Shown piece by piece: positions 18,018 to 33,031 of a DNA stretch of 35,143 bases (within the stretch, counting starts at the first letter, position 1; the number at the start of each line of letters is the position of its first letter). The position numbers and the translations under genes are program-made. This DNA comes from an uncultured Eubacteriales bacterium (GTDB lineage: Bacteria > Bacillota > Clostridia > Oscillospirales > CAG-272), in NCBI GenBank assembly GCA_900555785.1, contig USMO01000002.1, forward strand, positions 1 to 35,143, read 5' to 3'. The notes beneath the pieces are model-generated. The model saw nothing but the letters and a program-made list of their open reading frames with translations, ran no database searches and was not told where the DNA came from.

Positions 18018-20264
18018 TTAGCTTTCCGCTCCGTAGAAAAGCGATTTTCCGGAGACCAATTTCGCCGTTTGCCCGTCCGGCAGAATCAGTTCACCGTCAA
18101 TGCCGTCCGGCAGGTCGATTTCATAGCGCACCTGCCCTTCTTCAAAATGCCACGAGACGGAAATCTTTCCGGCGGGAGAGATAACGGAGCCTGCGGCAAA
18201 ACCGAGCCGCCGGTCAGGGCGCGGGGTGATGCGGACGCGGCGGTAGGCAGGCTCCGCGGGGTTGATTCCGAGCGCCGCGCCAAAGACCCAGTCGAACACA
18301 CAGCCGTAGGAATAGTGATTGAAGGAATTCTTTTCGTCGTCCCAGAAACTGCCGTCCTCGCGGATGCCGTCCCAGTGTTCCCAGATTGTGGTTGCGCCGC
18401 GGTTGACCGAGAACAGCCACGACGGATATTTTTCCTGCAAAAACAGGTTGTAGGCTTCCTTCAGATGTCCCGTTTCGGTCAGAACATGGAGCAGATACGG
18501 CGTGCCGACGAAACCGGTTGCCATACAACCGCCGTTCTGCCGGATCATCTCAAGCAGGGTATCCGTCAGCTTTTCCTTTTCCGCGCTGCCTTCATACAGC
18601 CCGAAGTGCAGAATCAGCACGATTGCCGTCTGCGTCTGTCCGATGACACGGCGGTTGGAAGACAGCCCGTCGAATTTCGGATAGAGGACAGGCAGCCCAT
18701 CCTTCATAAAGAGCTTGCGGAACGCCGCGCGGATATTGCCGTGCAGGGTACGGTACGCCTGCATATCCATGCCGAGCACCTCTCCCGCGCTGACCAGAAT
18801 CTGCGTGACATATGCGAAATAGGCGCTTGCGATCAGGTCGGTCTGCGTAGCGCCCTGACGGACGGCGGGGGACAGATCGGCATCTGCCGCCAGCCAGTCT
18901 CCGTAGTGATCGCCGCCGAGCCACAGATATTCCTCGGGTCCCTGCGCATGGATGAAATCTACCCATTTCTGCATCATGGGGAAGTGGCGGGCAAGCAGAT
19001 CTTTGTCGCCGTAAGCGCGGTAAAGCTCCCAGGGGCAGATGACCGTTGCATCGCCCCATGCGGCGGAAATTTTGGTTCCTCTGCCGGGCACTTTCGGCAC
19101 AACGCCGTAAATGCCGCCGTCCGCGTTCTGCTCCGACATCACATCGTTCAGCCATTTCGTAAAGAACCGTTTGACATCATAATTGATAGCCGCCGTGCGG
19201 ATAAAGACCTGCGCGTCGCCCAGCCAGCCGAGCCGTTCGTCGCGCTGCGGGCAGTCGGTCGGAATGTCGATGAAGTTGCTCCGCTGTCCCCAGAGCGTGT
19301 TCTGATACAGGCGGTTGACCTTCTCGTTTCCGCAGAGGAAGAAACCGGTCTCCTTCATGTCGGAGCAGATCGCCACGGAGACAAAGTTTTCGGGGCGGAT
19401 CTCCTCTCCGGCGGGGAATTCCTCGATCCGGATGTAGCGGTAACCCTGAAAGGTGAAATGCGGCTTGAGGACGCGCGACGTGCCGTCCAGCACATAGGTG
19501 TTGCGGCATTCGGCAAGCTCCAGATTTTTGGTGTAGAAGTTGCCATCGCGGTCGAGCGTTTCGGCGTGGGAAAGCGTTACGCGGTCGCCGGGAGCTCCGG
19601 TGACGGTGATTTCCGCGTATCCGGCAAGGTTTTGCCCGAAGTCAATCACGGTCTCGCCCTTCGGCGTGCGGATCAGCGCCTTGGCGTGAACCCGCGCAAG
19701 TTCGCGCACGGGAACGCCCTCGTCGGGAATCAGCCGGGCGGCGGGAGCGGCGTCGGGAACGGCATTGCCGAGAGATTCTTCTTTAGCCGTAAAGTCATCG
19801 GTTTCTCCGTGGTAGAATTCCGCGGAACGAATCGCATTCCGGTATACTCCCCAGCATTCGTCGGTGACGAGCCCCGTGACCGTGCCGTCCGCCTCCGTGA
19901 CCGAAAGTTCCGCCGCAAGCGAGATGTGGTCGGCAAAGATATGGTTGGTGTTGCCGCGCCCGAGGAAACCGACCGCCCAGCCGTTGGCGCACTGGATTTC
20001 CAGTCGGTTTTCTCCCGGAACGGCGAGGGGGAGCAGATTGTAGGTCTGCACCTGCAGGCGGTTTTGGTATCCGGTAAAGCCGGGGGCGAACAGCGCATCG
20101 CTGACGGGCGTGCCGTTGAGCGTGACGCGGTAAATGCCGACGCAGGTGACGGCAAGGGAAAGCCCGGTTTCGCTTCCGGTCAGCCGGAATGTGCGGGCAA
20201 AGACGGGGCAGGGGCTGATACCGATCTCCTGCGGGGATCGGATCCATTTTGCGCATGAAAGCAT
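18018..20264 (-). CDS. alpha-L-rhamnosidase, glycoside hydrolase family 78 (second copy)
   Basis: 748 aa with AKWIRSP...FRLTG...GIYRVTLNG, CPQRDERLGWLGDAQVF and a six-hairpin-type C-terminal region. Confidence 0.85.
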   Translation of the reverse strand: MLSCAKWIRSPQEIGISPCPVFARTFRLTGSETGLSLAVTCVGIYRVTLNGTPVSDALFAPGFTGYQNRLQVQTYNLLPLAVPGENRLEIQCANGWAVGFLGRGNTNHIFADHISLAAELSVTEADGTVTGLVTDECWGVYRNAIRSAEFYHGETDDFTAKEESLGNAVPDAAPAARLIPDEGVPVRELARVHAKALIRTPKGETVIDFGQNLAGYAEITVTGAPGDRVTLSHAETLDRDGNFYTKNLELAECRNTYVLDGTSRVLKPHFTFQGYRYIRIEEFPAGEEIRPENFVSVAICSDMKETGFFLCGNEKVNRLYQNTLWGQRSNFIDIPTDCPQRDERLGWLGDAQVFIRTAAINYDVKRFFTKWLNDVMSEQNADGGIYGVVPKVPGRGTKISAAWGDATVICPWELYRAYGDKDLLARHFPMMQKWVDFIHAQGPEEYLWLGGDHYGDWLAADADLSPAVRQGATQTDLIASAYFAYVTQILVSAGEVLGMDMQAYRTLHGNIRAAFRKLFMKDGLPVLYPKFDGLSSNRRVIGQTQTAIVLILHFGLYEGSAEKEKLTDTLLEMIRQNGGCMATGFVGTPYLLHVLTETGHLKEAYNLFLQEKYPSWLFSVNRGATTIWEHWDGIREDGSFWDDEKNSFNHYSYGCVFDWVFGAALGINPAEPAYRRVRITPRPDRRLGFAAGSVISPAGKISVSWHFEEGQVRYEIDLPDGIDGELILPDGQTAKLVSGKSLFYGAES

Positions 20265-20301: not shown

Positions 20302-21162
20302 TTATTTGTTTTCTTTCCTTGAATCGCGGGGACTGATGCCGAAACGAAGCCGATATGCCTTTCCGAAGGAATAGACCGAGGAATAGTTCAGCATTTCCGC
20401 AATCTCGGTTACCTTCAGGTTTTTGTTGCGGAGCAGATAGCGCGCGGTGTTCAGCTTCTTGTCGCAATAGTAGCGCCGCAGGGTGATTGACGTGTTGGCG
20501 CGGAACAGCGTGGAGAGATAATTGTAGCTGTAGCCGAAATATCGGGCAACCTCTTCCAGACTTCGGATGGAATAGATGTGCGTGTCAATGTAATTCATGA
20601 TTTTGCGGCAGAGAATTTCGGAGGGAATCAGCTGCCCGGACGGCTTGTCCGGTTTCTTCTCCCGGAAGTCACGGAGCAGATACAGCAGCAACTGTGAAAA
20701 GATACTGCACAGCAGGGCTTCGGAATCGGGCTGTGGGGAATCCACTTCCGGAATGGCATTTGCAACCAGTTGCCCGATCCGGTCGTCCCGAAAGACGCGG
20801 TTTTCCGGCAGGTAGTTGGCGGCAATCAGTTCTTCCAATGCCTGTATCGTGTCGGGTGCGACCGAATTGAACGCGAAAAAGTCGAATTTCAGCGGGGTAT
20901 CCGTATCCGAGACGATTTTGTGAATATCGGCAGGGAAAGAAAGATAAATATCCCCGGTGGAGATGTGGGACGCGATATTGTTTGTGTATACGGTTCCGGA
21001 ACCGCCGATTGCGATGGTCAACTCAAACAGATTGGGGTGAACGTGTGACGGGATGACCGCACCCGGGGTACAGTATGCTCTCCCGATCTGATGAAGCTGA
21101 AAGGAATCATACAGCGGTTGGTTAAAAAGCCACTCTTTGCAAAAATGGTAATCGAACAGCAT
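20302..21162 (-). CDS. AraC family transcriptional regulator (N-terminal cupin, C-terminal double HTH)
   Basis: 286 aa with C-terminal HTH_18-like LEEVARYFGYSYNYLSTLFR...VTEIAEMLNYSSVYSFGKAYRLRFGISP. Confidence 0.85.
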   Translation of the reverse strand: MLFDYHFCKEWLFNQPLYDSFQLHQIGRAYCTPGAVIPSHVHPNLFELTIAIGGSGTVYTNNIASHISTGDIYLSFPADIHKIVSDTDTPLKFDFFAFNSVAPDTIQALEELIAANYLPENRVFRDDRIGQLVANAIPEVDSPQPDSEALLCSIFSQLLLYLLRDFREKKPDKPSGQLIPSEILCRKIMNYIDTHIYSIRSLEEVARYFGYSYNYLSTLFRANTSITLRRYYCDKKLNTARYLLRNKNLKVTEIAEMLNYSSVYSFGKAYRLRFGISPRDSRKENK

Positions 21163-21187: not shown

Positions 21188-21216
21188 ATTATACCGAAAA
21201 AAGGAGGCTTTGTCAA
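21188..21216 (-). promoter_or_regulatory. consensus promoter of the AraC-GH78 operon
   Basis: Minus strand TTGACA, 17 nt, TATAAT. Confidence 0.7.
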
Positions 21217-21274
21217 CGGTTTGTTTGATAATGTCAAATAAAAAGGCAGAAAATGGAACAAAACGGGCGAAATT

Positions 21275-21338
21275 GTAAGAAATGATATCTTTTTGCGTAA
21301 GAAAAGGCATTTACATTGGAATTGATGTGTTGTATAAT
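21275..21338 (+). promoter_or_regulatory. tandem GTAAGAAA half-sites plus the promoter of the secreted-protein operon
   Basis: GTAAGAAA at 21275-21282 and 21297-21304 (22-bp spacing), immediately upstream of TTTACA (21310), 17 nt, TATAAT (21333). Confidence 0.5.
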
Positions 21339-21531
21339 GAATGCAGAAGTGAAGCGTGTATTTTCTACTTTTTGCACAAAATTTTCATGCAGATCCAAAA
21401 AGAAGAAAAAAGCTTTCACGGATGCACAAAAACCACACAAAAAAGAAAGGAGGTTTCTGTGGCAGAAGCAATGCCTCATGGTAACCCGTAATCTTCTCGA
21501 ATTCTAATTTTAAGGAGGCTTTTTTACAACA

Positions 21532-23010
21532 ATGAAAAAAAGAACCAAACGTCTCATTGCGGTTTGTCTGTTCGTATTTCAGGTTGCACTCGTGTTTGGC
21601 GGCATCTCTGCTTTTGCAGGGCTGAACACCTATGAGGACCTCAGAAGTTACAGCATCTACCGCGTTGACCCTTCCAAGATGACAGCAGACGGTGTTGTCG
21701 GTGCTGACGAACCGTGGGAGAAGGTTCCGTTCAGTGAACCCGTTCGGGTCTACTGGCAGAATCTTGTACCGGATGAAACGCCGGCGAAATTCAAGGCACT
21801 TTGGGGAAGCGACGCTTCCGGTGCGTACCTGTATTTCTGGGCGGAACTGAACGATCCGGACGGTACGTACAACAACGGCGACATTTTCCAGTTCCTGGTT
21901 GACGAAACAGGAACGAGCACCAGCCCCTGCCAGGCAGGCGGCAGTGCAACAGGCCCTTGCCGCAGAACCACGATTCTTTCGCTCCGCGAGGAAACAAAGA
22001 CGGTCGGCAACTGGTTCGAATACACCGTGAAGCGGACCAATGACGGCAAGGACGTAACGGTTGAAGCAAAGTACACCTTCTCGGATGCGAAGTACGCAAC
22101 GGCGAATGCCGAAATCGGTCTGGACTTCCTGACCCAGCGGACAAACAGCGAAGGAAAGTGCATCACCCAGTGGGCTTGGTGCAACAATGATGCCCAGAGC
22201 AAGCCGAACATTGCGGGGCGCGCTACGCTGAAGAAAATCAACGCGGTTGACCTCGGCACGGTTGTGGATGAGGATGACGATGCGGTGTTCTACAATGCGG
22301 GTCTTGCGGTTGCAAGCTGCAAGAAGGACGCAGACGGAAACGTGACGCTTCCGGCAGAGGCTTCGGGCGCGGCTGTTTGCGCATGGAAGAACCGCTCGGA
22401 CAACAAGCTGTATGCGGCGGGCAGTACTTACAAGGTTTCGAAGGCAAACGAGAAATTCGATGCGGTAACACCGAATGTTGCGCTCCTGGAGGGGGCGAGA
22501 GTTCGTTTTGCAACAACCGGCGCGCTGAAATTCGAAGGCACGATCGAAGAGTTCGATGATGTTAAGGACTATGTGAAGAAGGTTGGCATTCTGTTTGTCA
22601 AGACCGCGGATCTGACCGAGGAGATCGCAGGCGCAGGCGCAACGCCCGCTTCGCTGACTGCTGCGGGGATTTCCTTCCAAAAAGCGGAGGCGGATGCCGC
22701 AGCGAGCTTTGAGGGGGTTCTGGAGAACCTGACCGACAAGAATGAGATGTGGTCTGCTCTGCCGTATGTTACGGTGGAACTGGCAGACGGCACAACGACC
22801 GAATTTGCAGGTACTTATACGGAAGAGAACAATTCGAGATCGGTTGCAAAAGTTGCGCAGGCGGCTTACGAGGATCGTTCTCAGCTCAAAAATACCGGCT
22901 ATAAGAACAAAGTGGGCAGTGAATTCGGCGTGACGGGCTTTGAAGTGCTTTCTTTCAGCCCTTATAACAAGACCGAGCTTGCAATTCTCAAAAAAATCCT
23001 TGGAGAATAA
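21532..23010 (+). CDS. secreted protein with an N-terminal CBM9/DOMON-like carbohydrate-binding domain (paralog 1)
   Basis: Signal peptide (..GGISAFA). The pattern ADGVVGADEPWEKVPF...KALWGSDASGAYLYFWAELND resembles CBM9. Confidence 0.55.
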   Translation: MKKRTKRLIAVCLFVFQVALVFGGISAFAGLNTYEDLRSYSIYRVDPSKMTADGVVGADEPWEKVPFSEPVRVYWQNLVPDETPAKFKALWGSDASGAYLYFWAELNDPDGTYNNGDIFQFLVDETGTSTSPCQAGGSATGPCRRTTILSLREETKTVGNWFEYTVKRTNDGKDVTVEAKYTFSDAKYATANAEIGLDFLTQRTNSEGKCITQWAWCNNDAQSKPNIAGRATLKKINAVDLGTVVDEDDDAVFYNAGLAVASCKKDADGNVTLPAEASGAAVCAWKNRSDNKLYAAGSTYKVSKANEKFDAVTPNVALLEGARVRFATTGALKFEGTIEEFDDVKDYVKKVGILFVKTADLTEEIAGAGATPASLTAAGISFQKAEADAAASFEGVLENLTDKNEMWSALPYVTVELADGTTTEFAGTYTEENNSRSVAKVAQAAYEDRSQLKNTGYKNKVGSEFGVTGFEVLSFSPYNKTELAILKKILGE

Positions 23011-23028
23011 AACACGGAGGATATTGCT

Positions 23029-24480
23029 ATGAAAAACATTCGCAAAATTGTTGCCGCCGCGCTCGTAACATTTCAGGTTATTCTGACTGCGGCAGTCGGA
23101 TTTATCCCCGCAAGCGCAGAGGCGGGAACACAAGGGAACGCCTATTCCTATCAAGTGTACAAGGCAGATGCGCCGATTACGGTAGACGGCGCGGTAACGG
23201 AAGGCGAGGCATGGGACAATCTCCCGTGGTCGGAAAATTTCAGTTGGCGTTGGTGTCAGAACAATTGGCATCTGAAGTCGGACTACATTGCTTCTTTTAA
23301 GTCGATGTGGTACAAGAATGCCGACGGAGAAGCATTCCTGTATTTCCTGTTTAACATCAACGACGAGGACGGTTATACGAACGGTGACAAATACGATTTC
23401 GGTATTGACGAAACCGGTATGGCTACGGGTGGACCGGCAACTGCTGCAGATGCAACGATGCGTCGTTCGGGCGGAACTTCTCTTGCAGAAGGAACGCTGA
23501 GCAAGAACACAAGCAAGGGTGACTATTATATGAAGCACGCCGTAAAGCGTGTTGACGCGGAACACCGTGTGACCTTGGAGATTGAATATAAGTTCTATGC
23601 TCCGGAAAACGCTGCGGACGGAAAGACGGTTGGCTTTGAAATCAACATTGAATGGCTGACAGACGGACAGTCGAATGCAATTTGGAGCGGCAACAGAGCC
23701 ACCAGCTGGGGAAGTTGGAACGAGGCGAAAAATTACGGCGCATTGAAGCTTCACGATGCGGCTGCAACCACAAGACGGGCTGCCAATATCTATAACGGCA
23801 ATGAAGTCGTTGTGTCTGCCGACATTACCGAGAACGGCAAATTTACCCTTCCGACAACCTTTGCGGCTTCTTCTAATCAGCTCGTCGGTTGGAAAGACGC
23901 GGAGGGCAAGCTCTACAAGCCCGGTAAGGAACTCACCGGACTCACCGCGAGCGCAACCTTTACGGCTGTGACCGTTGATTTCAAAACGCTTGACGGTGCG
24001 GCTGTCCGTTTTGCCGATCCTACGGGACTGCGTTTCTACTCGCAGGCTTCCAAAGCTGATTTTGACACGCTCGGCGCGGCTCTGACCGCAACGGGGACGC
24101 TGCTTCTTCCCACCGATATGCTCGGCGAGGGCGCGCTGACGCTGGAGGCGCTTGCCGATAAGAAAGAGAGCAAGGATTACCTGAACATCCCGAACAGCGG
24201 CTGGCTGAATGCAGAAACGGCAGAAGCCGACGGTTACTATCAGTTCAGCGGCGCAATCGTGAACATCAAGACTGAAAACTACGATCGCAACTTCTCCGCT
24301 GTCGGTTATTTCACCGTGACCTATGAGAACGGCGAAACCGCAAACTTCTACGGCGGCTATAAGGCGGCGAACGCAACCAGCGTTAAGACGGTTGTAACCA
24401 AAGCGCTGGAGGAACTTGCCGCAAATCCCGGTAAGTATACCGATGCTGAAAAAGCCATTCTCGAATCCTACACGAAATAA
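23029..24480 (+). CDS. secreted protein with a CBM9/DOMON-like domain (paralog 2)
   Basis: Signal peptide (..IPASAEA). VDGAVTEGEAWDNLPW...KSMWYKNADGEAFLYFLFNIND has the same architecture as the upstream gene. Confidence 0.55.
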   Translation: MKNIRKIVAAALVTFQVILTAAVGFIPASAEAGTQGNAYSYQVYKADAPITVDGAVTEGEAWDNLPWSENFSWRWCQNNWHLKSDYIASFKSMWYKNADGEAFLYFLFNINDEDGYTNGDKYDFGIDETGMATGGPATAADATMRRSGGTSLAEGTLSKNTSKGDYYMKHAVKRVDAEHRVTLEIEYKFYAPENAADGKTVGFEINIEWLTDGQSNAIWSGNRATSWGSWNEAKNYGALKLHDAAATTRRAANIYNGNEVVVSADITENGKFTLPTTFAASSNQLVGWKDAEGKLYKPGKELTGLTASATFTAVTVDFKTLDGAAVRFADPTGLRFYSQASKADFDTLGAALTATGTLLLPTDMLGEGALTLEALADKKESKDYLNIPNSGWLNAETAEADGYYQFSGAIVNIKTENYDRNFSAVGYFTVTYENGETANFYGGYKAANATSVKTVVTKALEELAANPGKYTDAEKAILESYTK

Positions 24481-24495
24481 AAGGAGAAACACACA

Positions 24496-24657
24496 ATGAA
24501 AAAGAAGTATTCAATTCCGTTTGCGGAAGCCATTCATTGCGATTTCTGCGATATTCTGACTTCTTCCGACACCGCTACTGAAACCGCTACCAATGCAGTG
24601 GGCCAGAAGGGCGGCAGTAACGGCGACTGCTACGGCGATGATTGCTTTCCAAAATAA
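24496..24657 (+). CDS. 53-aa Cys-rich small protein (not in the supplied ORF track)
   Basis: AAGGAGAA lies 8 nt upstream of the ATG. The product is MKKKYSIPFAEAIHCDFCDILTSSDTATETATNAVGQKGGSNGDCYGDDCFPK. It has CxxC and CxxxxC pairs and no signal peptide. Confidence 0.5.
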   Translation: MKKKYSIPFAEAIHCDFCDILTSSDTATETATNAVGQKGGSNGDCYGDDCFPK

Positions 24658-24687
24658 AATGTCTGACAGATAACGGAGGATTTACCA

Positions 24688-24897
24688 ATGAAAAAACTGA
24701 CAGCAGCTATTCTTGCCTTGCTGATCTGCGTTTTTGCGTTTGCTTCGTGCGGTTCGGATAGCAACAAGCCGTCCGATACGACGCCGAACACGACCGATGT
24801 AGGAACCAAGCAGCAGGATGAGACACCGACAAAGGCAAATTCCGGAAACGAAACCTCTGCGCCTGAATCGACGCGTGAGTGGTCCGACCGCTATTGA
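24688..24897 (+). CDS. small low-complexity lipoprotein
   Basis: 69 aa with lipobox FASC, a Thr/Pro/Ser/Asp-rich tail and a GGAGGA SD. Confidence 0.55.
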   Translation: MKKLTAAILALLICVFAFASCGSDSNKPSDTTPNTTDVGTKQQDETPTKANSGNETSAPESTREWSDRY

Positions 24898-24911
24898 GCT
24901 ATTGATCTTTG

Positions 24912-24950
24912 GTTACAGACGGCGCATCGCGCCGTCTGTAACTTGTAAGT
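24912..24950 (+). terminator. strong hairpin (partial terminator or processing site inside the gene cluster)
   Basis: GTTACAGACGGCGC-atc-GCGCCGTCTGTAAC perfect 14-bp stem, then TTGTAAGTT. Confidence 0.5.
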
Positions 24951-24971
24951 TCGTTACAGAAAGGAACCAAT

Positions 24972-26429
24972 ATGAAAAGATTTATCAGCCTTACCCTTGC
25001 TCTTCTGATGGTGCTCGGCGCGATGGCGCTGACCGCCTGCAAGAAAGACTCCGGGAAGAACCCGTCCGGTACAACAAACAGCACGGCTCAGACCGAAGAC
25101 CCGAACGTCAACGCGGACGAGCACTTCGATGTCCCGAAGCAGGAAATCGGACGCGTGATGACCGCCCTGACCTACAACAGCACCATTCCCGAATTCGGCA
25201 AAGAAGAGGACGAATCGGGTGACTCCGTCAACTATGCGCTGGTTCAGCGGGACAACATTGTCAAAGAGCACCTCGGCATCGAGATGAAGGTTACCTCCAT
25301 TGAAGGACAGTTCGGTTCGATGACCTCCTTCATCGAAACCGTTACCAACACGGTGTTCGGAAATGTGGAGGCATATGACATTGTCGGTGCATACTGTCTG
25401 ATTCCCGTGTCCCTTATGGTCACTGGAATCACCGAAGATCTGAATACCGTTGAGAATGTGGATTTCTCCAAAACATGGTGGTCGGATTTTATTCATGACG
25501 CGGTTACCCTGAACAATAAAACCTACTTCATGTCGGGTGAACTTTCCGCAAACCTGCTGTACAACATGCAGGTCATGCTGTTCAACACCAGTCTGCTCGA
25601 AAACTACAGCGACCTGACCAAAAACGATCTGTACAGCCTGGTTGACAATAACGAGTGGACCATTGATCGCTTCTTTGAGATCGCGTCCGCTCTGTCGCTT
25701 CCGTCCGATACCGTTGACGCGGTGTCCAAGATCTACGCAGTCGGAATGTCTGACCAGAACCAGCTGGACAGCTTCTATATTGCATCCGGACTGCATCTGT
25801 TCGAGATTCAGGACGGTTCTCTTGCAGTTTCGCAGGATACCACTTCCAATAAAGTTCTGAGTCTGTTGGAAAAGGTGAAGAATGCGGCATACGACTCGCA
25901 GATTTTCAACATCAACGGCGGAACGACAGGCTTCAAAACCAACAAGGAAGTCTTTACGATTGCCGCTGTCAAATACGTTAAGACCGATTTTAACGAAATG
26001 AGGGATATCGGGCTTCTCCCGTTCCCGAAATATTCGGAGGATGATTCCTACCATACCCTGCTGGGCAATGACCATGCGGAATATTTCATCACGACCAATG
26101 TAAAGAACAAAGCGGAATCGGGTGCATTCCTGGAAACGCTTGCCTACGCCGGAAGCATTCAGATCACTCCCGATGTTTACTACCGGATCATGAAAAAGCA
26201 GTACAGCAAGGATCCTGATTCTTCGAGAATGTTCGATATTATCCGCGCCGGAACCACCACCGAGTTCGGAATCCTGAGCTATAACCTCTTTGAAGGAGGC
26301 AATGCGCCCGCTTCCATGTTCCGTAATGCGGTTCTGCTGAAGAGAGACTGGGTCTCCTATTACAAGGAATCGTTTGAATCTCCGATGGCAAAGGTCGCGG
26401 ATCAGCTGAACGCATTCTTTGAGGATTGA
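24972..26429 (+). CDS. extracellular solute-binding-protein-like lipoprotein (ABC SBP family 1-like) without cognate permease or ATPase nearby
   Basis: 485 aa with lipobox LTAC. Size and composition are typical of large sugar SBPs. Confidence 0.6.
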   Translation: MKRFISLTLALLMVLGAMALTACKKDSGKNPSGTTNSTAQTEDPNVNADEHFDVPKQEIGRVMTALTYNSTIPEFGKEEDESGDSVNYALVQRDNIVKEHLGIEMKVTSIEGQFGSMTSFIETVTNTVFGNVEAYDIVGAYCLIPVSLMVTGITEDLNTVENVDFSKTWWSDFIHDAVTLNNKTYFMSGELSANLLYNMQVMLFNTSLLENYSDLTKNDLYSLVDNNEWTIDRFFEIASALSLPSDTVDAVSKIYAVGMSDQNQLDSFYIASGLHLFEIQDGSLAVSQDTTSNKVLSLLEKVKNAAYDSQIFNINGGTTGFKTNKEVFTIAAVKYVKTDFNEMRDIGLLPFPKYSEDDSYHTLLGNDHAEYFITTNVKNKAESGAFLETLAYAGSIQITPDVYYRIMKKQYSKDPDSSRMFDIIRAGTTTEFGILSYNLFEGGNAPASMFRNAVLLKRDWVSYYKESFESPMAKVADQLNAFFED

Positions 26430-26439
26430 GGTGCGCCGG

Positions 26440-28245
26440 ATGAAACAACGCAAGCCCAATCGCTGGGTTTTGATTCCGACGCTGCTTCTCCTGCTTGCTG
26501 TTTGTCTGGGGCTGTTTTCCTGTCAGAACACAGAGCAGCCCCCGACCCCCGGGTCGGACGGAAGCGCCGGCGGAAGTACCGCTGTTTCGGAGACCGAGAC
26601 CGAAACTGCGGACGGCGGTAATACCGTCAGAAATGTGACGCTTGCAACGGGCACGAAAGCCGCTTTTACCGTTGTCCGTCCCGATGGCTGTTCTTCTGCT
26701 CTCGAATCAACCGTTGCCTCGTTGGTTGATACCCTCCACCGTGCAACGGGGGCGTGGTTTGTATCCACAACCGATTCCGATTTCAGCGAAACGCCTGTTG
26801 AAAGCTCGATGGAGATTATCATTGGCAACTGCTACCGTGCCGATACCGTGCGGGTGTTGAAGAGTCTCAAATATAAGGATTATGAAATCTGTCTGACGGA
26901 AAACAACATTGTGGTTGCGGCATACACCGATGAAGCCGCTATCAGTGGCGCACAACGTTTGGCACAGATGATCGAAAGCAACACCGTAAAGGACGATCGT
27001 AGCGCGGTTCTGACGTGGAAAAAGGACTACACCTATCGGGCGTTGATCTATAAGCTCAAGGATATCACGCTGAACAACGTTTCCGTGCAGAATTTCCGCA
27101 TCGTTTATCCTGCCAAGGATTCGGTTGCACAAAGCGTGGCAGAGAATATCCAAACGGTAATCGGTGAAGTCTGCGGAGCCGTTCCGGAGGTCGTTCCGGA
27201 TTCCGAGCCAAAGGCAGAGCATGAGATTCTGGTTGGAAATACCGCCCGCAGTACAGAGGAAACCGCTTCGGCAAATCTGCAGCAGGGGCAGTATCTGATG
27301 CTGGCAAAAGGCGGAAACATCTATTTTATCGGTTCGTCCGCAACGCTGACAACCACCCTTGTAACGGAATTCAAAGCGTATCTGGATGCGAAAAAAGGAG
27401 TACTGGACGATATGAATGAACGGAAATCTCTGAATGTTCCCGGTGAGTTTGCCGCAAATGCCGGGGATGTGCGGATTATGGAATACAATGTTCTGGTGGA
27501 ATTCGCAGGTTGGGGTTCGGGTGGAAAAATTCCTGCCGATGTGAATCTGCGCAAGGGGATCATCGCTTCGCTGATCAACGGCTATTCGCCCGATGTGCTC
27601 TGCCTGTGCGAGTTTTTCGACACATGGAGTCAGGAACTGCCGCCGCTGTTGGATTCCAAGTACAAATTCGTAAGCCTGACCCGCCCGGACGGACTGTCCA
27701 ACCGGACTTCGCTGGTCTATAACTCCGAAACGCTGACCCTGATTGAGGGTGGATACGAGGATATCAGCATTCATCCGACAACAGACGCGCCTTGGAACGA
27801 TGATGTGAACCATCGCGTCATTATGTGGGGCGTTTTTGAAGTGAAGGCAACCGGAAAGCGCTTTATGACGCTCGGAACGCATTATACCTCCACGGCAAGC
27901 GCGACTTCCGAACTTACGGCACAGGAGCATCTGGAAGCACAGAAGGTGATGCAGGCAGAAATGACGCTCAAGCGGCTGGATACGCTGAAAAAGACCTACA
28001 ATGTGCCCGCAATTATTCTCGGCGATCTGAATACCGCAAAAGGCTCGGATTGCTACACCACGATCAAGCGTTGGACCGGTTACGGTGACGTGGCGGATTC
28101 CTTCCCGAACGATTATCTTGCCGATCATATTTTCTACGATCCGAACGGATTTTCGCTGAAAAACGCAATTCTGGAGAAAGGGAAAAAAGCGGATACCGCC
28201 TCCGACCATTGGCCGATGATTGCGGACTTTTCCTTTTTGAAGTGA
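26440..28245 (+). CDS. lipoprotein with a C-terminal endonuclease/exonuclease/phosphatase (EEP) domain
   Basis: I chose the ATG at 26440. Lipobox LFSC. EEP motifs: RIMEYNVL, LCLCEF, ILGDLNT, SDHWPMIADF. The N-terminal half has two similar ~120-aa repeats ending in E(I/H)(I/L)(I/V)GN. Confidence 0.7.
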   Translation: MKQRKPNRWVLIPTLLLLLAVCLGLFSCQNTEQPPTPGSDGSAGGSTAVSETETETADGGNTVRNVTLATGTKAAFTVVRPDGCSSALESTVASLVDTLHRATGAWFVSTTDSDFSETPVESSMEIIIGNCYRADTVRVLKSLKYKDYEICLTENNIVVAAYTDEAAISGAQRLAQMIESNTVKDDRSAVLTWKKDYTYRALIYKLKDITLNNVSVQNFRIVYPAKDSVAQSVAENIQTVIGEVCGAVPEVVPDSEPKAEHEILVGNTARSTEETASANLQQGQYLMLAKGGNIYFIGSSATLTTTLVTEFKAYLDAKKGVLDDMNERKSLNVPGEFAANAGDVRIMEYNVLVEFAGWGSGGKIPADVNLRKGIIASLINGYSPDVLCLCEFFDTWSQELPPLLDSKYKFVSLTRPDGLSNRTSLVYNSETLTLIEGGYEDISIHPTTDAPWNDDVNHRVIMWGVFEVKATGKRFMTLGTHYTSTASATSELTAQEHLEAQKVMQAEMTLKRLDTLKKTYNVPAIILGDLNTAKGSDCYTTIKRWTGYGDVADSFPNDYLADHIFYDPNGFSLKNAILEKGKKADTASDHWPMIADFSFLK

Positions 28246-28249
28246 TCCG

Positions 28250-29182
28250 ATGCTGACAAAAGAACAACTCGAAAAAAATCTTGAAGTCCCGCAGGGGCGG
28301 GTCGATGTGATTCTGGACACCGATACCTTCAACGAGGCGGATGATCAGTTTGCACTGGCGTACCTGCTCCTGTCCGGGGAAAAGCTGAACACGGTCGGCA
28401 TCTGCGCCGCGCCGTTCTTCAATGCAAACAGCACCTCTCCCGCCGACGGCATGGAGAAAAGCTACGGTGAGATCCTGCATATTCTCGGGCTGATGCACCG
28501 CGAAGAGCTGATCCCGAACGTATATCGGGGCGCCTGTGGCTATCTGCCGGACGAAAAAACGCCGGTTGTGACCGACGCGTCGGAGTTCATGGTGCGGGAA
28601 GCACGGAAGCATTCGCCCGAAAACCCGCTTTACATCGTTTCCATTGCGGCGGCAACCAATGCGGCGTCTGCCATTCTGACAGATCCGGTTGCAATGACGG
28701 AAAATGTTGTCCACATCTGGCTGGGCGGTCATGCGCTCCATTGGGTGGACACCAAGGAGTTCAACATGAAGCAGGATGTTGCGGCAGCTCGGGTTTTGTT
28801 CGGTTGCGGTGCACCGCTGGTACAGCTGCCGTGTAACGGTGTTGCAAGCGGCTTTACCACGACCGAGCCGGAACTGCGACATTACCTGAAGGGGAAAAAT
28901 CCGCTCTGTGACTATCTGCTTGCGAAGGCAACGGAGGGAATGGACCGTCGTTTCCGGGACATCGCGTGGGACCGTGCCATTTGGGATGTGACCGCCGTGG
29001 GGTGGTTGCTCAACGAAAACAACCGCATGATGCTCTCCTATCTGCGTCCGGCGCTGATTCCGCAATATGACGGAACCTATTCGGAGCAGCCCACGCGGCA
29101 TCCCATGCGCTATGTGTATTTTGTCTGCCGTTACGGACTGATGACCGATCTGTTCCGAAAACTGAGCGGAGCAAATCAATGA
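28250..29182 (+). CDS. nucleoside hydrolase (inosine-uridine preferring, IUNH fold), cytoplasmic
   Basis: 310 aa with the N-terminal Asp cluster ILDTDTFNEADDQFALAY. Confidence 0.75.
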   Translation: MLTKEQLEKNLEVPQGRVDVILDTDTFNEADDQFALAYLLLSGEKLNTVGICAAPFFNANSTSPADGMEKSYGEILHILGLMHREELIPNVYRGACGYLPDEKTPVVTDASEFMVREARKHSPENPLYIVSIAAATNAASAILTDPVAMTENVVHIWLGGHALHWVDTKEFNMKQDVAAARVLFGCGAPLVQLPCNGVASGFTTTEPELRHYLKGKNPLCDYLLAKATEGMDRRFRDIAWDRAIWDVTAVGWLLNENNRMMLSYLRPALIPQYDGTYSEQPTRHPMRYVYFVCRYGLMTDLFRKLSGANQ

Positions 29183-29215
29183 AGCGAAGCGACTGTAAAG
29201 CCCTTCAGAACGCTG

Positions 29216-29254
29216 ACAAAGCCTATCTCGGACAGAGATAGGCTTTGTTTTTTT
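29216..29254 (+). terminator. rho-independent terminator at the end of the gene cluster
   Basis: ACAAAGCCTATCTC / GAGATAGGCTTTGT stem followed by TTTTTT. Confidence 0.8.
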
Positions 29255-29368
29255 GATACAATCAGATGAAGATTCCCCATTGTACAGCCGATTTTTTTCG
29301 TTCAACCTCAGGCATTTCGCCAATAGGTGACGTGCTTGGAAGAAGGCTGAAAAGTTCCTTTTTGCTTA

Positions 29369-30244
29369 TCACCTGTCGGTGTGAGGGGACTTCTCATATT
29401 CGGACGGATTGACACCGAAATAGTTTTTGTAGCTCCGCGAAAAGCTGTGAATGGAGGAATAACCCAACTGCTCGCTGACCTGCGTTACGGTCAGCCCCTG
29501 CCCCAGAAGCCGGTTGGCCTCCTTCATCCGGCAGGAAAGGTAGAACTCATTCAAATGCTTGCCAGTGATGCGGAAGAAGCGCTTGGACAGATAGCTGTAA
29601 TTATAATTGAAGATGTCCTCCAAATCGCGCAGGCGGGTCAGCGCGGCAATGTTGCGCGTGATGTACGTCTCCACCCGGTAGACCAGCACCGCATCGTCGG
29701 TGATTTTCGGGAAATAGCAGTCGTGCCGGTTGTCGGTTCCCGAGCGGATGTAATCAATCAGCATCTCCGCCATCAGGTATCCCGCCATCTCCAGCCGGAA
29801 CGGGCTGTCGCTCTGCAGCTCGGAAAACAGCCGGACAATCAGCGGGCTTTGATCCTGCATGGCAATGCATCTGGCGTTTTCCGCTCGGAACAGGCGTCCC
29901 AGCTCGTCAAACAGATAGGAAAAGGACGGGTTTCCGGGGTTGCGCTCAAAGCCGAGGAACACGAACCGGAGCGGGTCGACGCTGTCGGACATAATGGCGT
30001 GGTTCTCGCCCGGAAAGGACAGCACGCAGTCGTTCTTCTTCACGTGGTTTTGCACGCCGCCCGTCTGAACCGTGCCCGTTCCGGACAGCACATAGGTCAG
30101 CTCATAGCAGCACTGGCTGTGCACCGCAACCGCGGAATCCGCATTGCACCACAGCTCTCCGTACTGATAAAGCGCGAACCCTGCACACCGCAGCCGCTCC
30201 ACGCTGACATTGTCAAAATGGTACTGATACGGAATGTTATCCAT
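29369..30244 (-). CDS. AraC family transcriptional regulator (cupin + HTH)
   Basis: 291 aa with C-terminal VTQVSEQLGYSSIHSFSRSYKNYFGVNP. Confidence 0.85.
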   Translation of the reverse strand: MDNIPYQYHFDNVSVERLRCAGFALYQYGELWCNADSAVAVHSQCCYELTYVLSGTGTVQTGGVQNHVKKNDCVLSFPGENHAIMSDSVDPLRFVFLGFERNPGNPSFSYLFDELGRLFRAENARCIAMQDQSPLIVRLFSELQSDSPFRLEMAGYLMAEMLIDYIRSGTDNRHDCYFPKITDDAVLVYRVETYITRNIAALTRLRDLEDIFNYNYSYLSKRFFRITGKHLNEFYLSCRMKEANRLLGQGLTVTQVSEQLGYSSIHSFSRSYKNYFGVNPSEYEKSPHTDR

Positions 30245-30287
30245 ATTCCTACCTCCCGGAATTTTTCGACAGAGGCGGGGGAGGCTC

Positions 30288-31133
30288 TTACAGCTTCTCC
30301 CGAATGAACCCGACTGCGCCGCGGATGTCCTCCAGCGGATGGTCGCCGGCCTCGCGCTCCAGCGTCAGATAGCCGTCAAAGCCCGCGCGCTTCAACGCTG
30401 CAAGATAGCGGTCCCACGGTACATCGCCCTCGCCGATCGGCAGCTCCGTAAAGGATTTGCAGGCGTTCAGCGCCTCCACACCGCCAATCGCAAAACTGTG
30501 GTAGATCTCCTCGGGCGTCATATCGTCGTTGAGCTTTCTTCCGTCCTTGAGGTGCGTGTGAACAATGTATTTGCCCAGCAGGTCTACCGCCTCTGCGGGG
30601 TCCTGCCCGGTCACCATCACAAAGTTTGCCGGGTCAAGGTTGACGCCAACGCCGCCCTTTGTTCCTTCCAGAAAATGCAGCAGCGTTCTGGCCGGCTCCG
30701 GCCCGGTTTCAATCGCCAGCGTAACGCCGCGCGACTGCGCATACAGGCCGCATTCGGTCAGCGCGCGCTGCATCACGCCAAAGCGCGGATTGCTGTCGTC
30801 CGATGGGATCACGCCGATGTGCGTGGTCACCACTGCCGCGCCGAGATCTACCGCGAGATCCACAATCGCCTTGGTCTTTTCAATCCGCAGGGCGTTGTCC
30901 GCCTCGCGCTCAAAGCCGTAGCCGCCCATGTCGCCGCACAGCGCGGAAATCTCCATTCCGTTTTCCTTCAGAAACGCGCAGAACTCCGTCCGTGCGTCCG
31001 CGTCCAGCACATCCGGGCAGAACGCGCCGGTGGTGGCATAAATCTGCACACCGGTCAGCCCCAGCGATTTCGCGGTCAGAACCGCTTCCCGCACCGGCTG
31101 CTTGAGACAGTCTGTAATCACTCCGAGTTTCAT
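30288..31133 (-). CDS. sugar phosphate isomerase/epimerase (xylose isomerase-like TIM barrel, AP_endonuc_2 fold)
   Basis: I chose the ATG at 31133 (AAAGGAGGA upstream). It shows VTLAIETGPE, VGVNLDPANF and HTHLKDG patterns. Confidence 0.8.
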   Translation of the reverse strand: MKLGVITDCLKQPVREAVLTAKSLGLTGVQIYATTGAFCPDVLDADARTEFCAFLKENGMEISALCGDMGGYGFEREADNALRIEKTKAIVDLAVDLGAAVVTTHIGVIPSDDSNPRFGVMQRALTECGLYAQSRGVTLAIETGPEPARTLLHFLEGTKGGVGVNLDPANFVMVTGQDPAEAVDLLGKYIVHTHLKDGRKLNDDMTPEEIYHSFAIGGVEALNACKSFTELPIGEGDVPWDRYLAALKRAGFDGYLTLEREAGDHPLEDIRGAVGFIREKL

Positions 31134-31180
31134 AACTTGTCCTCCTTTGCCCTGCCTTCCGCAGGGATTTCTCATATTCT

Positions 31181-31218
31181 ATTATACAATAAAACCCCGC
31201 CGGTTTCTTTATCATTTG
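31181..31218 (-). promoter_or_regulatory. box-dependent promoter P3 (isomerase-AraC operon)
   Basis: Minus strand CAAATGATAAAG (31218..31207), 20 nt, TATAAT (31186..31181). Confidence 0.6.
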
Positions 31219-31293
31219 TAAAACAAGTATTTAACAATTTATGTAGACTGAAAATTCGGCAAAAAAATCCATAAATGTTAAACAAGCGGATTG

Positions 31294-31331
31294 CAACAGA
31301 TAAAGACAAAACCGGAATTTGATGCTATAAT
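31294..31331 (+). promoter_or_regulatory. box-dependent promoter P4 (oxidoreductase 31380)
   Basis: CAACAGATAAAG (31294-31305, 10/12 match to the box), 20 nt, TGcTATAAT (31326-31331). Confidence 0.6.
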
Positions 31332-31379
31332 GCAGATAGCGGAAGAATCCGCAAAGTCTTTGAAAATGGGGATGATTCT

Positions 31380-32441
31380 ATGAAAAAACATTGCATTGCG
31401 GTCATCGGTTGCGGAAGAATCGCGCAGAACGCGCACCTTCCGGCATTTACAAAAATGGATAACGTCCGGGTGAAGTACGCCTGCGACCTGATTGCGGAGA
31501 AGGCAGAAAAAGCGGTTCGCGATTTCGGTTGCGAGCAGGCGATTACCGACTACAATATTGCGCTGAAAGATCCGGAAGTGGAAGCGGTCTGGGTGCTGAC
31601 CCCGAACTATGCGCACTACACCGTTACCATGGATGCGCTCCGCGCCGGCAAGCACGTTCTGTGCGAAAAGCCGATTACCGTCAGCTATCCGCTTTCCTGC
31701 GAAATGGCGGCAGAGGCCAAGAAGCAGGGCAAGCTGCTGAACATCGGTGTCTGCAACCGGTATCAGAAGTCGGTTGAGATGATCGAGGCGCTGAACGCTT
31801 CGGGTAAACTCGGCAATCTCTATCATGTTTACTGCTCGTTCCGCAACTATCGCAGCATTCCGGGACTGGGCGGCGCTTTTACAACCAAGGAACAGTCCGG
31901 CGGCGGCGTGCTGATCGACTGGGGTATTCACTTCCTTGACCTGATCCTGTACGTGCTGGGCGGCGCAAAACTCAAGACCGTTACCTGCGACACCTACAAC
32001 GAAATGGCAAAGAACATGAAGGATTATGTTTACAAGTCGATGTGGGCAGAGGATACCAAGGATCTGAACGGTACCAACGACGTGGACGATATGGTCACGG
32101 GCTACATCCGCACCGACAAGGCAAGCATTTCCTTCAACGGCGCATGGGCGCAGAACATCGGCGAGGACGAGATGTTCGTCGATTTCATGGGCGATAAGGG
32201 CGGTGTCCGTCTCCACTACGGAAAAGACTTTGAGTGGTGGACGGTTGAGGACGGCACGCTGATGAAGAAGCAGCCGCTCTACAAGATTCCGGATATGTAC
32301 CAGAAGGAAGACGAGGCGTTCATCTCCGCCATCGAAACCAGCGAGCACACCAAAACGCATATCGATAACATTCTGGAAAGCGCCAAGCTCCTGCAGGCAC
32401 TTTACGATTCGGCTGAGCAGAAGAAGGAGCTGACCTTCTGA
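31380..32441 (+). CDS. Gfo/Idh/MocA family oxidoreductase
   Basis: 353 aa with CIAVIGCGRIAQNAHLPAF and GKHVLCEKP. Confidence 0.85.
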   Translation: MKKHCIAVIGCGRIAQNAHLPAFTKMDNVRVKYACDLIAEKAEKAVRDFGCEQAITDYNIALKDPEVEAVWVLTPNYAHYTVTMDALRAGKHVLCEKPITVSYPLSCEMAAEAKKQGKLLNIGVCNRYQKSVEMIEALNASGKLGNLYHVYCSFRNYRSIPGLGGAFTTKEQSGGGVLIDWGIHFLDLILYVLGGAKLKTVTCDTYNEMAKNMKDYVYKSMWAEDTKDLNGTNDVDDMVTGYIRTDKASISFNGAWAQNIGEDEMFVDFMGDKGGVRLHYGKDFEWWTVEDGTLMKKQPLYKIPDMYQKEDEAFISAIETSEHTKTHIDNILESAKLLQALYDSAEQKKELTF

Positions 32442-32486
32442 AAAAATGAAGGTTGACCGGTTCGATTAGAAAGGTCAAAAGAGAAC

Positions 32487-32609
32487 GCCCCGTGTGTCGT
32501 TCCGTAAAATTATAAGGCAATACCGCGCAATTCCGATGGCACAATCACGAATTGCGCGGTGTTGCCTTCAGTAAGTGAAATTTTACGGAATGGCATACGG
32601 GGCTTTTTT
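32487..32609 (+). terminator. 117-nt near-perfect extended hairpin plus U-tract (elaborate terminator or 3'-UTR RNA element)
   Basis: Outer GCCCCGT/ACGGGGC, 6 bp with three G-T pairs, 12-bp TTCCGTAAAATT/AATTTTACGGAA, then a 20-bp inner helix with one T-G pair, then TTTTTT. Confidence 0.65.
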
Positions 32610-32686
32610 CTGCAGAGAACCCGGTATAAAGAAATTTGTTTATATTGATATGAACGGTTGCGCTTGATACTGATGTGACGAAACAA

Positions 32687-32695
32687 TGCTATATA
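32687..32695 (+). promoter_or_regulatory. extended -10 promoter (TGcTATATA)
   Basis: TG at 32687-32688 and TATATA at 32690-32695. There is no good -35. Confidence 0.4.
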
Positions 32696-32701
32696 CCCTG
32701 T

Positions 32702-33031
32702 ATCCGTTTGCCTGCCTCAACCGCACCAACACCCTCGGCGCGGTGCATCATACCGACCGGAGGGAACCTGGATCGGTCCTGCACTCTGGCGCACGACCGG
32801 AAACCGTTGGTGCTACGAATACGAACCGGAAGAGGAAGGAATTTTGCACCGCCCGATGCCGATCTTGGAGAAAGACCGAAACGGAACAGAGCGTCAGGAA
32901 TCCCGGTTTTCGGAATTGGAACCTTCTGTCCAACAACATGCTGAAGTGGTTGAGAGAGAATCCCTGATATAGCTTTGGCAACAGATGTGGCTGTGAAATT
33001 CCCAAACGGATTTTCACAGCCACTGTTTTTG
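32702..33031 (+). ncRNA. candidate orphan structured RNA, ~330 nt, class unknown
   Basis: It is bounded by the extended -10 promoter and a strong + strand terminator (GTGGCTGTGAAA/TTTCACAGCCAC + TGTTTTT at 32987-33031). Stacked long-range helices pair 32716-32722 with 32948-32954 and 32723-32730 with 32806-32813. No ORF has an SD. Confidence 0.35.

Follow-up and report, generated by a model that had tools for sequence, protein, structure and literature searches.

A conserved operon for surface proteins without a transporter gene in an uncultured gut Clostridia species: putative front end of a carbohydrate-utilisation system

Contig USMO01000002.1 of assembly GCA_900555785.1 (positions 1 to 35,143; this whole stretch of 35,143 nucleotides is referred to as the window) stems from an uncultured Clostridia species of the human gut that is close to UMGS1014. 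It carries seven co-oriented, tightly spaced genes (g1-g7), all of which were found as open reading frames (ORFs) on the forward strand at the coordinates given by a first-pass annotation made from the DNA letters only. They encode (i) two secreted proteins with a CBM9 fold (g1, g2), (ii) a small peptide (g3) and a small lipoprotein (g4), (iii) a lipoprotein with the fold of a substrate-binding protein (SBP; g5), (iv) a lipoprotein with an EEP phosphoesterase domain (g6), and (v) an IUNH-fold hydrolase (g7). The question raised by this locus is what such a set of surface proteins may do with no permease or ATPase encoded beside its SBP. The answer preferred here, with a probability of about one half, is that g1-g7 form an AraC-activated operon and act as extracellular front end in carbohydrate utilisation, with the SBP feeding a distant translocator. 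Surface capture combined with phosphoester cleavage, as suggested by the first-pass annotation, is a reasonable core function, since the products are extracellular or lipid-anchored, the SBP is transporter-less and the EEP enzyme is catalytically intact.

Whether the genes belong together at all can be judged from related loci (L numbers); a genome scan for these was productive with a narrow alignment (A2), but not with the over-diverse A1. Cluster content was read from tblastn searches with ORF maps and from called genes. Homologues of g5 and g6 are few and all derive from metagenome-assembled genomes (MAGs) of uncultured human- or animal-gut Clostridia, i.e., UMGS1014, HGM12690, HGM12711, a Hadza MAG and roe-deer colon MAGs. 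In clustering at 90 % identity, g5 falls into a group of 307 member sequences and g6 into one of 383. A core composed of a divergent AraC gene, one or two CBM9 proteins, a g3-like peptide, a g4-like lipoprotein, the SBP lipoprotein and a lipoprotein with two GH20b-like domains followed by an EEP domain is kept in L001, L003, L007-L012, L014, L015, L019 and L020, at SBP identities of 33–92 %. HGM12690 and the Hadza MAG each harbour two paralogous clusters. A metagenome scan yielded only six further loci, all from the human gut and with no new architectures. Since order and content are kept down to 33 % identity, the genes are regarded as a conserved unit with a variable, but consistently carbohydrate-active, periphery. 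Co-conservation across many uncultured gut Clostridia was thus found for the core, the IUNH gene excepted.

Mere adjacency, i.e., two unrelated transcripts separated by a hairpin between g4 and g5 and forming no functional unit, could draw on the strength of this hairpin and on the varying presence of g7 and of a linked GH78 gene. The hairpin, located at 24912-24950 in the first-pass annotation and suspected there to split the cluster, does exist (its true span is 24911-24943). However, it has no U-tract and is itself retained at its place within the cluster, where L001 and L007-L010 show compensatory changes; a promoter scan detected no promoter-like site upstream of g5; and core order and content persist from 33 to 92 % identity. 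By the latter, mere adjacency is largely refuted and can be considered very improbable. Lacking a U-tract and being conserved within the operon, the hairpin was also dismissed as a terminator. It probably sets differing mRNA levels for g1-g4 versus g5-g7, acting as a stability or attenuation element and not as a boundary. L003 possesses an unlike, GC-rich hairpin at the same position between g4 and g5.

The genes g4 and g5 are separated by 74 nt; all other gaps within g1-g7 measure 4–30 nt. Shine-Dalgarno sequences precede g3 (a good one), g4 and g5 (one each), and the ATG start of g6 (yielding MKQRK) is backed by the N-termini of homologues. Long antisense ORFs were regarded as artefacts of composition, given that homologues and domains were found for the genes of the plus strand; an example is the ORF at 21385-24492 on the minus strand opposite g1 and g2, which would encode a hydrophobic-looking product of 1035 aa.

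The paralogous proteins g1 and g2 (30 % identity, E = 7e-39) share the same architecture and possess signal peptides of the signal peptidase I type; signal peptides and lipoboxes of all products were read straight from the sequences, and this reading revealed no lipobox, LPXTG or SLH motif in g1 and g2. In g1, an N-terminal CBM9-fold domain (residues ~48-238) is followed by a C-terminal half; the C-terminal halves of both proteins have no detectable relatives. The family profile (A4, 12 members) matches CBM9 modules over their whole length (1i82, 1.7e-11; 7nwn, 7.9e-11), in agreement with the earlier description of g1 and g2 as secreted CBM9-like paralogues. The Pfam model CBM9_1 matches 5 of the 12 family members (best 2.9e-11), with g1 of the window scoring just below the cut-off (9e-5; 22.9 versus 23.4 bits). 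Genes for g1-like proteins were found in every cluster. Since a homologue search with g1 returned almost solely variants of 95–100 % identity, no deep alignment, and hence no structure model, could be obtained for g1 and g2. The look of their linker recalls Listeria-Bacteroides repeats, for which Pfam gave no match.

The peptide g3 (no signal sequence) belongs to a family of 41–55 aa with the motif MKKxYxxP-x(10-12)-DI(L/I)T(S/T)S and, at its C-terminus, G(D/E)xYxxDxF. It occurs as a single copy per cluster in 10 non-redundant loci, whereas none was detected outside the clusters in the ~460 kb examined, and searches of Pfam and NCBIfam assigned no family. Of its first description as a 53-aa Cys-rich peptide, the length stands; the richness in Cys was rejected as a defining property, as its Cys residues lack conservation and the L001 orthologue contains no Cys. 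The small Thr/Pro-rich lipoprotein recognized earlier is g4, consisting of a lipobox, a disordered low-complexity linker rich in Thr, Pro and Glu, and a C-terminal (D/E)W(S/T)xxY-COOH, the latter being kept in every cluster (12 orthologue sequences). It is proposed that g4 may serve as a membrane tether with a docking motif at its C-terminus.

The lipobox Cys23 of g5 is invariant among homologues. The protein itself has no match in Pfam, PF13416 being present in distant homologues. Since searches of PDB sequences with g5, both as single sequence and as profile, gave nothing significant, structure prediction was needed. The AlphaFold2 model (predicted local distance difference test, pLDDT, of 88.3) matched 7c14, 2z8d, 7vfq and 4mfi in Foldseek (2e-13 to 6e-12, probability 1.00). 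Template modelling (TM) scores of 0.53–0.58 at 12–15 % identity to MalE, UgpB and GL-BP-type SBPs mark it as a two-lobed SBP of the CUT1 type, which bears out the prediction of an SBP-like lipoprotein of 485 aa.

The lipoprotein g6 comprises two α/β domains (residues ~62-335) and a C-terminal EEP domain (~340-601), essentially as outlined beforehand (601 aa, two N-terminal repeats plus EEP). The N-terminal domains show weak similarity both to one another (E = 0.015) and to GH20b domains, the latter with matches in 7 of 16 homologues (best 2.3e-4). The EEP domain exceeds the cut-off of PF03372 (2.7e-8; 34.3 versus 24.5 bits), and its catalytic residues N350, E391, H481, D529, N531, D562 and S588-D589-H590 are invariant in the 16 homologues. 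According to sequence (2.2e-5) and structure (1.8e-16; AlphaFold2 model of g6 with pLDDT 84.4), its closest solved relative at ~20 % identity is BT3783 (3mpr/4c1r) of B. thetaiotaomicron, a phosphatase acting on phosphorylated yeast-mannan glycans (PMC4978465). The structure 3g6s is also among the nearest ones, and nocturnin, BVU_0621, CNOT6L, TDP2 and PDE12 follow closely. The likeness to a sugar-phosphate phosphatase of the BT3783 type may thus be read as a resemblance only. Two further candidate functions of g6 were discarded: (i) sphingomyelinase or phospholipase C, no such structure being among the top 50 Foldseek matches, and (ii) ExeM/NucH nuclease, the respective model (NCBIfam NF033681) scoring 27.3 bits versus a cut-off of 300 with 150 residues matched.

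An exhaustive phmmer search with the N-terminal module of g6 (residues 62-335) against 1.84 billion representatives of 50 %-identity clusters gave 828 matches at E ≤ 1e-3 (191 at E ≤ 1e-10), mostly proteins of 555–620 aa with the module at the N-terminus. In ten sampled matches, the C-terminal partner was an EEP domain in five, a calcineurin-like Metallophos domain in one and a GH16-containing part in one. From these fusions it follows that the module carries interchangeable phosphoesterase or glycosidase domains, which supports a phosphoester substrate in a glycan setting.

In case of g7, which starts 4 nt past g6, the earlier assignment as IUNH nucleoside hydrolase holds for the fold (Pfam IU_nuc_hydro, 1.3e-16; 61.6 bits versus a cut-off of 34.2), but the protein is remote from characterised nucleoside hydrolases (RihA equivalog model, 24 bits versus 433; PDB relatives, 5e-4 at best) and lies outside the conserved core. 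Its N-terminal Asp motif, DTDTFNEADD, contains two extra residues compared to the canonical DXDXXXDD. The gene is confined to the closest relatives, the type-A clusters (see below), and missing in L003, L010-L012, L014, L015, L019 and L020. An intracellular N-riboside step, as put forward previously, is accordingly no conserved part of the system, since elsewhere the slot of g7 holds short cytoplasmic EEPs, GH78 or GH63-like enzymes.

These properties bear on the scavenging of nucleic acids or nucleotides, in which g6 would act as a surface nuclease or phosphodiesterase, g5 would bind (di)nucleotides or nucleosides and g7 would split the imported nucleosides. The EEP fold is indeed common to nucleases and nucleotide phosphodiesterases, g6 does weakly match ExeM/NucH, the top Foldseek match of g5 is a dinucleotide-binding SBP, and g7 has the IUNH fold. 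Such scavenging is nevertheless unlikely: the ExeM/NucH score is an order of magnitude below its cut-off, g7 is missing from most cluster types and only distantly related to characterised nucleoside hydrolases, the clusters showed no genes for purine or pyrimidine salvage, the recurrent neighbours (GH78, esterases, GH20, GH63-like) are all carbohydrate-active, and CBM9-fold proteins with an AraC/RhaS-like regulator suit sugars better. Nucleic acid and NAD/ADP-ribose conjugates, both considered initially as substrates, have no contextual support.

The carbohydrate-active periphery differs between cluster types. Type A (window, L001, L007-L009) has g7 added and a GH78 α-L-rhamnosidase gene behind the AraC gene. 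In the window, this GH78 gene follows the AraC gene on its strand at a distance of 37 nt and encodes a protein without signal peptide, predicted to be an accessory cytoplasmic enzyme. Type B (L003, L011, L012, L014, L015) has a double-CBM9 protein of 604 aa as well as a short EEP lacking a signal peptide, but no g7. In L019, genes for GH78, a cytoplasmic EEP and a GH63/MGH1-like enzyme follow in the same orientation right after the g6 orthologue, and L020 contains a second EEP, an SGNH esterase and GH20. Further esterases are a CE2-like one within the cluster of L015, AXE1 following g6 in L011, and an SGNH esterase that adjoins the cluster of L014 together with GH78 (those of L014 and L020 being of the SGNH/GxDLY kind). 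The former statement that no glycoside hydrolase (GH) is present thus applies to g1-g7 of the window, but not to the surroundings in the window and in its relatives, where GH78 appears in three arrangements (behind AraC, beside the cluster in L014, within the operon in L019) and esterases and GH20 flank variant clusters.

The recurrence of rhamnosidase, esterase, GH20 and phosphoesterase genes suggests a rhamnose-bearing, phosphate-substituted and probably acetylated glycan as substrate, for example microbial cell-wall or capsular/exopolysaccharides or yeast-type phosphoglycans. Such a substrate could also be the organism's own. Rhamnose-rich, phosphodiester-decorated wall polymers are common in Firmicutes, and in a remodelling or recycling of own-wall glycopolymers the CBM9 proteins would bind the secondary cell-wall polymer, g6 would free phosphodiester-linked polymers and g5 would recover the fragments. 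This fits with the surface enzyme g6 being a phosphoesterase and with the secretion of g1 and g2 lacking a recognisable anchor, as binding to wall polysaccharide could retain them. However, the cupin-type AraC control together with the linked cytoplasmic GH78, esterases and GH20 looks catabolic and nutritional, the two or three paralogous clusters per genome suggest several external substrates, and no wall-biosynthesis genes are linked to the clusters, rendering own-wall turnover improbable.

A further feature of the clusters is the missing transporter. A scan covering most ORFs of 150 aa or more in the window found no permease or ATPase, and no BPD_transp permease, ABC (ATP-binding cassette) ATPase or other transporter lies within 8–10 kb of any g5 family member in at least 15 contexts. 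Relatives with 21–32 % identity to g5 (L005, L016, L017, L018, L022, L023) likewise have no permease among their called genes. A regular-expression scan for the permease EAA-loop motif, the pattern of which had been checked solely against the MalF and MalG loops, gave no match in 463 kb of loci plus window. Members of the g5 family (~500 aa each) even form tandem arrays with no nearby permease, comprising three or four copies in L017 (4668-11204) and three in L022 (8001-12719), the latter array adjoining GHL10 proteins with dockerins. The SBP without transporter noted at the outset is therefore no peculiarity of this locus, and the orphan state represents a property of the family.

Import of the substrate must nevertheless occur, because the same operons also code for catabolic enzymes that have no signal peptide. 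For g5, the simplest explanation is that it shares a translocator encoded elsewhere, with a non-transport role as the main alternative. Pairing of the SBP with a distant transporter for a simple sugar had been regarded beforehand as fatal to the idea of a joint system; a distant transporter is in fact most likely, since import is needed, but the substrate is evidently no simple sugar.

The non-transport alternative is a stand-alone glycan-binding or adhesion complex at the cell surface, in which g5 would have lost its transport role and act together with the CBM9 proteins, the g4 tether and the EEP enzyme, with import being unrelated to g5; it would be comparable, in a Gram-positive cell, to the Sus-like surface glycan-binding proteins. 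Besides the lack of adjacent permeases for all g5-family members examined (21–92 % identity in more than 15 independent contexts, tandem arrays included) and the missing Pfam SBP match of g5 in the window, the evolution of the clusters would be in line with such a complex. Between species, GH78, AraC and g7 are 83–94 % identical, compared to 57–66 % for g1, g5 and g6. Between the window and L007 (UMGS1014), GH78, AraC, g1, g5, g6 and g7 share 92–99 % and g4 88 % identity, versus 67 % for g2 and 64 % for g3; at the same time, g3 of L007 is 98 % identical to that of L008, and g2 of the window 82 % identical to that of L009. The g2-g3 segment (window 23029-24657; L007 8083-9711) is swapped between near-identical strains and looks like an allelic replacement between related species. 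From this identity pattern, the extracellular proteins evolve fast and exchange segments, as expected of exposed surface components. On the other hand, the overall fold of g5 is that of an ordinary two-lobed CUT1 SBP, orphan SBPs using a distant translocator are well known, e.g., MppA with Opp (PMC3173086), and the cytoplasmic catabolic enzymes of the same operons still need an importer. Loss of the transport role is hence rated as a doubtful, if serious, possibility.

Pursuing this possibility, one may tentatively speculate that the g5 family has left ABC transport altogether and provides the surface glycan-binding subunit of a membrane-tethered complex with CBM9 proteins and enzymes carrying the GH20b-like module, assembled by the g4 peptide and with g3 as a further subunit or signal. 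If true, it would represent a Gram-positive counterpart of the Bacteroidetes ‘utilisome’ and might specialise on phosphate-decorated, rhamnose-rich polysaccharides of microbial walls or capsules.

Returning to the preferred reading of g1-g7 as front end of carbohydrate utilisation, the following course may be envisaged. At the cell surface, a complex glycan or glycoside would be bound by the CBM9-fold proteins g1 and g2, which g4 may hold at the membrane via its C-terminal (D/E)W(S/T)xxY. With its intact EEP fold and residues, g6 would remove or cleave a phosphate ester of the substrate. The product would be bound by g5 and handed over to an ABC translocator encoded elsewhere, a delivery assumed because of the cytoplasmic enzymes encoded in the same operons. 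In the cytoplasm, the GH78 α-L-rhamnosidase would finish the product, with a contribution of the sequence-divergent IUNH-fold g7 in type A; in other cluster types, this slot is filled by short cytoplasmic EEPs, GH63-like enzymes or esterases.

Several points weigh against this course. (i) Sugar binding by g1 and g2 is not assured. Of the two Trp residues that form the clamp gripping the reducing-end sugar in CBM9-2 of T. maritima, alignments show that g1 keeps neither, g2 only the second and the type-B g1-like proteins only the first, so that the fold is CBM9 while ligand specificity is not transferable. (ii) The peptide g3 has no place in this course, and the tether role of g4 is presumptive. 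(iii) With no transporter near the clusters, the import step rests wholly on an unseen partner. (iv) The best structural match of g5 binds dinucleotides, and the nucleotide or nucleic-acid enzymes nocturnin, CNOT6L, TDP2 and PDE12 match the EEP domain of g6 at E-values similar to that of BT3783. (v) No endo-acting polysaccharide-degrading enzyme is encoded in the operon of the window, and the substrate is narrowed down to a class only.

Control of the operon is likely to involve the divergent AraC gene, which is also found at the clusters of L001, L003, L007-L010, L012, L015 and L019. Its HTH_18, HTH_AraC and AraC_binding domains all exceed the cut-offs, and its product gives weak near-full-length matches to AraC and RhaS models. 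The intergenic region between AraC and g1 contains two direct repeats (Table 1) within the most conserved block of its alignment; the last base of the second one is also the first of the -35 hexamer in the g1 promoter. The repeat pattern has two matches in the window versus 0.03 expected, and in the loci it matches only the orthologous site of type A. This arrangement, as judged from the DNA itself, fits an activator of the AraC/XylS type, and the repeats would be bound by AraC.

The 5′ leader of g1 extends over ~190 nt. At ~21440-21500, a conserved GGAAAGGAGGTT resembling a Shine-Dalgarno sequence precedes a short hairpin (GGCA...TGCC) with compensatory changes in L008, L009 and L001; these may represent a decoy ribosome-binding site or a leader element. 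Rfam, applied to the whole window, reported a single tRNA at the gathering threshold and nothing for the leader, so that no riboswitch accounts for its length.

Table 1. Features of the operon g1-g7 and of the adjacent AraC-GH78 transcript (positions in the window)
Feature	Position	Strand	Properties
GH78 α-L-rhamnosidase	18018-20264	-	748 aa; Pfam Bac_rhamnosid6H 1.2e-107 plus three more GH78 domains
AraC/XylS regulator, divergent from g1	20302-21162	-	HTH_18 8.5e-16, AraC_binding (cupin) 3.2e-8
Promoter-like site of AraC-GH78 transcript	21188-21216	-	12/12 match to TTGACA-17-TATAAT; conserved across five aligned loci
Two 15-bp direct repeats (YGTAAGAAAWGRYAT)	21274-21288, 21296-21310	+	22 bp start to start; candidate AraC operator
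Promoter-like site of g1-g7 operon	21310-21338	+	TTTACA-17-TATAAT, 11/12 match; both hexamers kept in five loci
g1	21532-23010	+	ORF of 492 aa
g2	23029-24480	+	ORF of 483 aa
g3	24496-24657	+	ORF of 53 aa
g4	24688-24897	+	ORF of 69 aa
g4-g5 intercistronic RNA hairpin	24911-24943	+	15-bp stem, 3-nt loop, dG -33.7, z -5.45, no U-tract
g5	24972-26429	+	ORF of 485 aa
g6	26440-28245	+	ORF of 601 aa
g7	28250-29182	+	ORF of 310 aa; present only in type-A clusters
Intrinsic terminator-like hairpin, operon end	29215-29256	+	15-bp stem plus T-run; best terminator-like site in scan (29215-29249)

The surroundings of the operon contain additional genes of sugar metabolism. Downstream, a second sugar-type set (29369-34062) comprises, on the minus strand, an AraC gene (29369-30244), a TIM barrel resembling xylose isomerase (30288-31175) and a second, weaker IUNH-like protein (33085-34062) and, on the plus strand, a Gfo/Idh/MocA oxidoreductase (31380-32441); the IUNH-like gene is adjoined by one for a predicted 273-aa lipoprotein (34124-34945, minus) with no match in Pfam. 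Pairs of TIM-barrel and Gfo/Idh/MocA proteins, which are typical of oxidative (3-keto) glycoside cleavage pathways, recur beside related clusters in L003, L016 and L020. Upstream of the first GH78 gene, a region rich in rhamnoside-related genes includes a second GH78 rhamnosidase (14616-16940; 774 aa, no signal peptide) and, just before the first one, a weakly Gfo/Idh/MocA-like ORF (17069-17959). On the same contig as its type-B cluster, L012 harbours a third, different AraC-linked set (9966-16505) composed of AraC, an SBP-like protein with 25 % identity to g5, a protein of 330 aa, a lipoprotein of 444 aa and a secreted protein of 563 aa that share a repetitive GGIVG-type region; the three proteins scanned (the 330-aa protein not among them) have no match in Pfam.

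Farther upstream, a low-GC stretch (7571-12810; 0.38–0.49 versus ~0.55 elsewhere) begins after tRNA-Ser(cga) at 7571-7659. Its products are DUF6548, a Fic/winged-helix protein, one resembling helicases, a GNAT as well as an ArsR/DUF2087 protein. Part of it is enclosed by the two copies (8248-8388 and 11299-11439; 89 % identity) of a 141-nt direct repeat, and the stretch may be an inserted element. ARAGORN detected two tRNAs in the window, compared to the one of Rfam.

The organism is common in human-gut assemblies, yet uncultured, and its operon represents a conserved set of surface proteins outside the standard layout of Gram-positive carbohydrate utilisation, which hints at glycans containing rhamnose and substituted with phosphate as a possible food. 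As concrete reagents for finding the substrate, the operon supplies the SBP, the CBM9 proteins and the EEP enzyme. A permease-less SBP family that occurs in tandem arrays beside carbohydrate-active enzymes bears on the automated annotation of ‘transporters’ from SBP genes, and the GH20b-like double module with its 828 matches constitutes an uncharacterised carrier of phosphoesterase and glycosidase domains.

The combination of genes was not recognized as a described system in the first-pass annotation, and the literature searched likewise contained no description of it, nor of a whole orphan family of carbohydrate-type SBPs that goes together with CBM9 proteins, one tether-like and one EEP lipoprotein. 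Partial likenesses exist to several known systems. With extracellular nuclease and salvage systems (ExeM/NucH; RihA/B/C), the locus shares an EEP fold outside and an IUNH fold inside the cell, but it differs by scores far below the family cut-offs, an IUNH gene that is not co-conserved and a carbohydrate context. The Sus system of Bacteroidetes (SusD/E/F and SusG) is similar in outline with regard to lipid-anchored binding proteins, a surface enzyme and sugar-responsive co-regulation; unlike Sus, the present locus resides in a monoderm host, has no TonB-dependent transporter and employs a phosphoesterase instead of a glycosidase, and there is no homology between the two. MppA of E. coli is an orphan SBP working with OppBCDF (PMC3173086). 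In both cases the SBP gene lies away from any permease and function depends, or in case of g5 would depend, on a shared translocator; however, with g5 the entire family is orphan, tandem arrays included, is of CUT1 type and is set in a multi-protein surface operon.

The yeast-mannan polysaccharide utilisation loci (PULs) of B. thetaiotaomicron include the EEP phosphatase BT3783 (Cuskin et al. 2015, PMC4978465). As in these PULs, an EEP-fold enzyme is embedded in the present locus, with BT3783 as closest solved relative of its catalytic domain. In contrast to BT3783, g6 is a lipoprotein of a Gram-positive cell and bears two additional GH20b-like domains, and in contrast to the mannan PULs the locus has neither mannanases or mannosidases (the linked hydrolase being GH78) nor a SusC/SusD pair.

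Gram-positive PULs (gpPULs) are defined by one or more enzymes degrading polysaccharides, a system for carbohydrate transport and a transcriptional regulator (Sheridan et al. 2016, PMC5320581). Like gpPULs of gut Firmicutes, the locus possesses an AraC regulator, a CUT1-type SBP lipoprotein, CBM-bearing extracellular proteins as well as linked GHs and carbohydrate esterases. Unlike them, it has no permease or ATPase nearby and its sole extracellular enzyme is an EEP phosphoesterase. Two components, a small conserved peptide and the tether-like lipoprotein, come in addition and are to our knowledge not known from gpPULs. Set beside the three elements of the definition, the regulator is represented by the divergent AraC conserved with the cluster and the transport system by an SBP alone; the degrading enzyme is only loosely represented, as g1-g7 include no GH and no endo-acting enzyme was seen, but the exo-acting GH78 rhamnosidase is located behind AraC and, in L019, within the operon. 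Working like a gpPUL, the locus looks like a variant of the known carbohydrate-utilisation loci.

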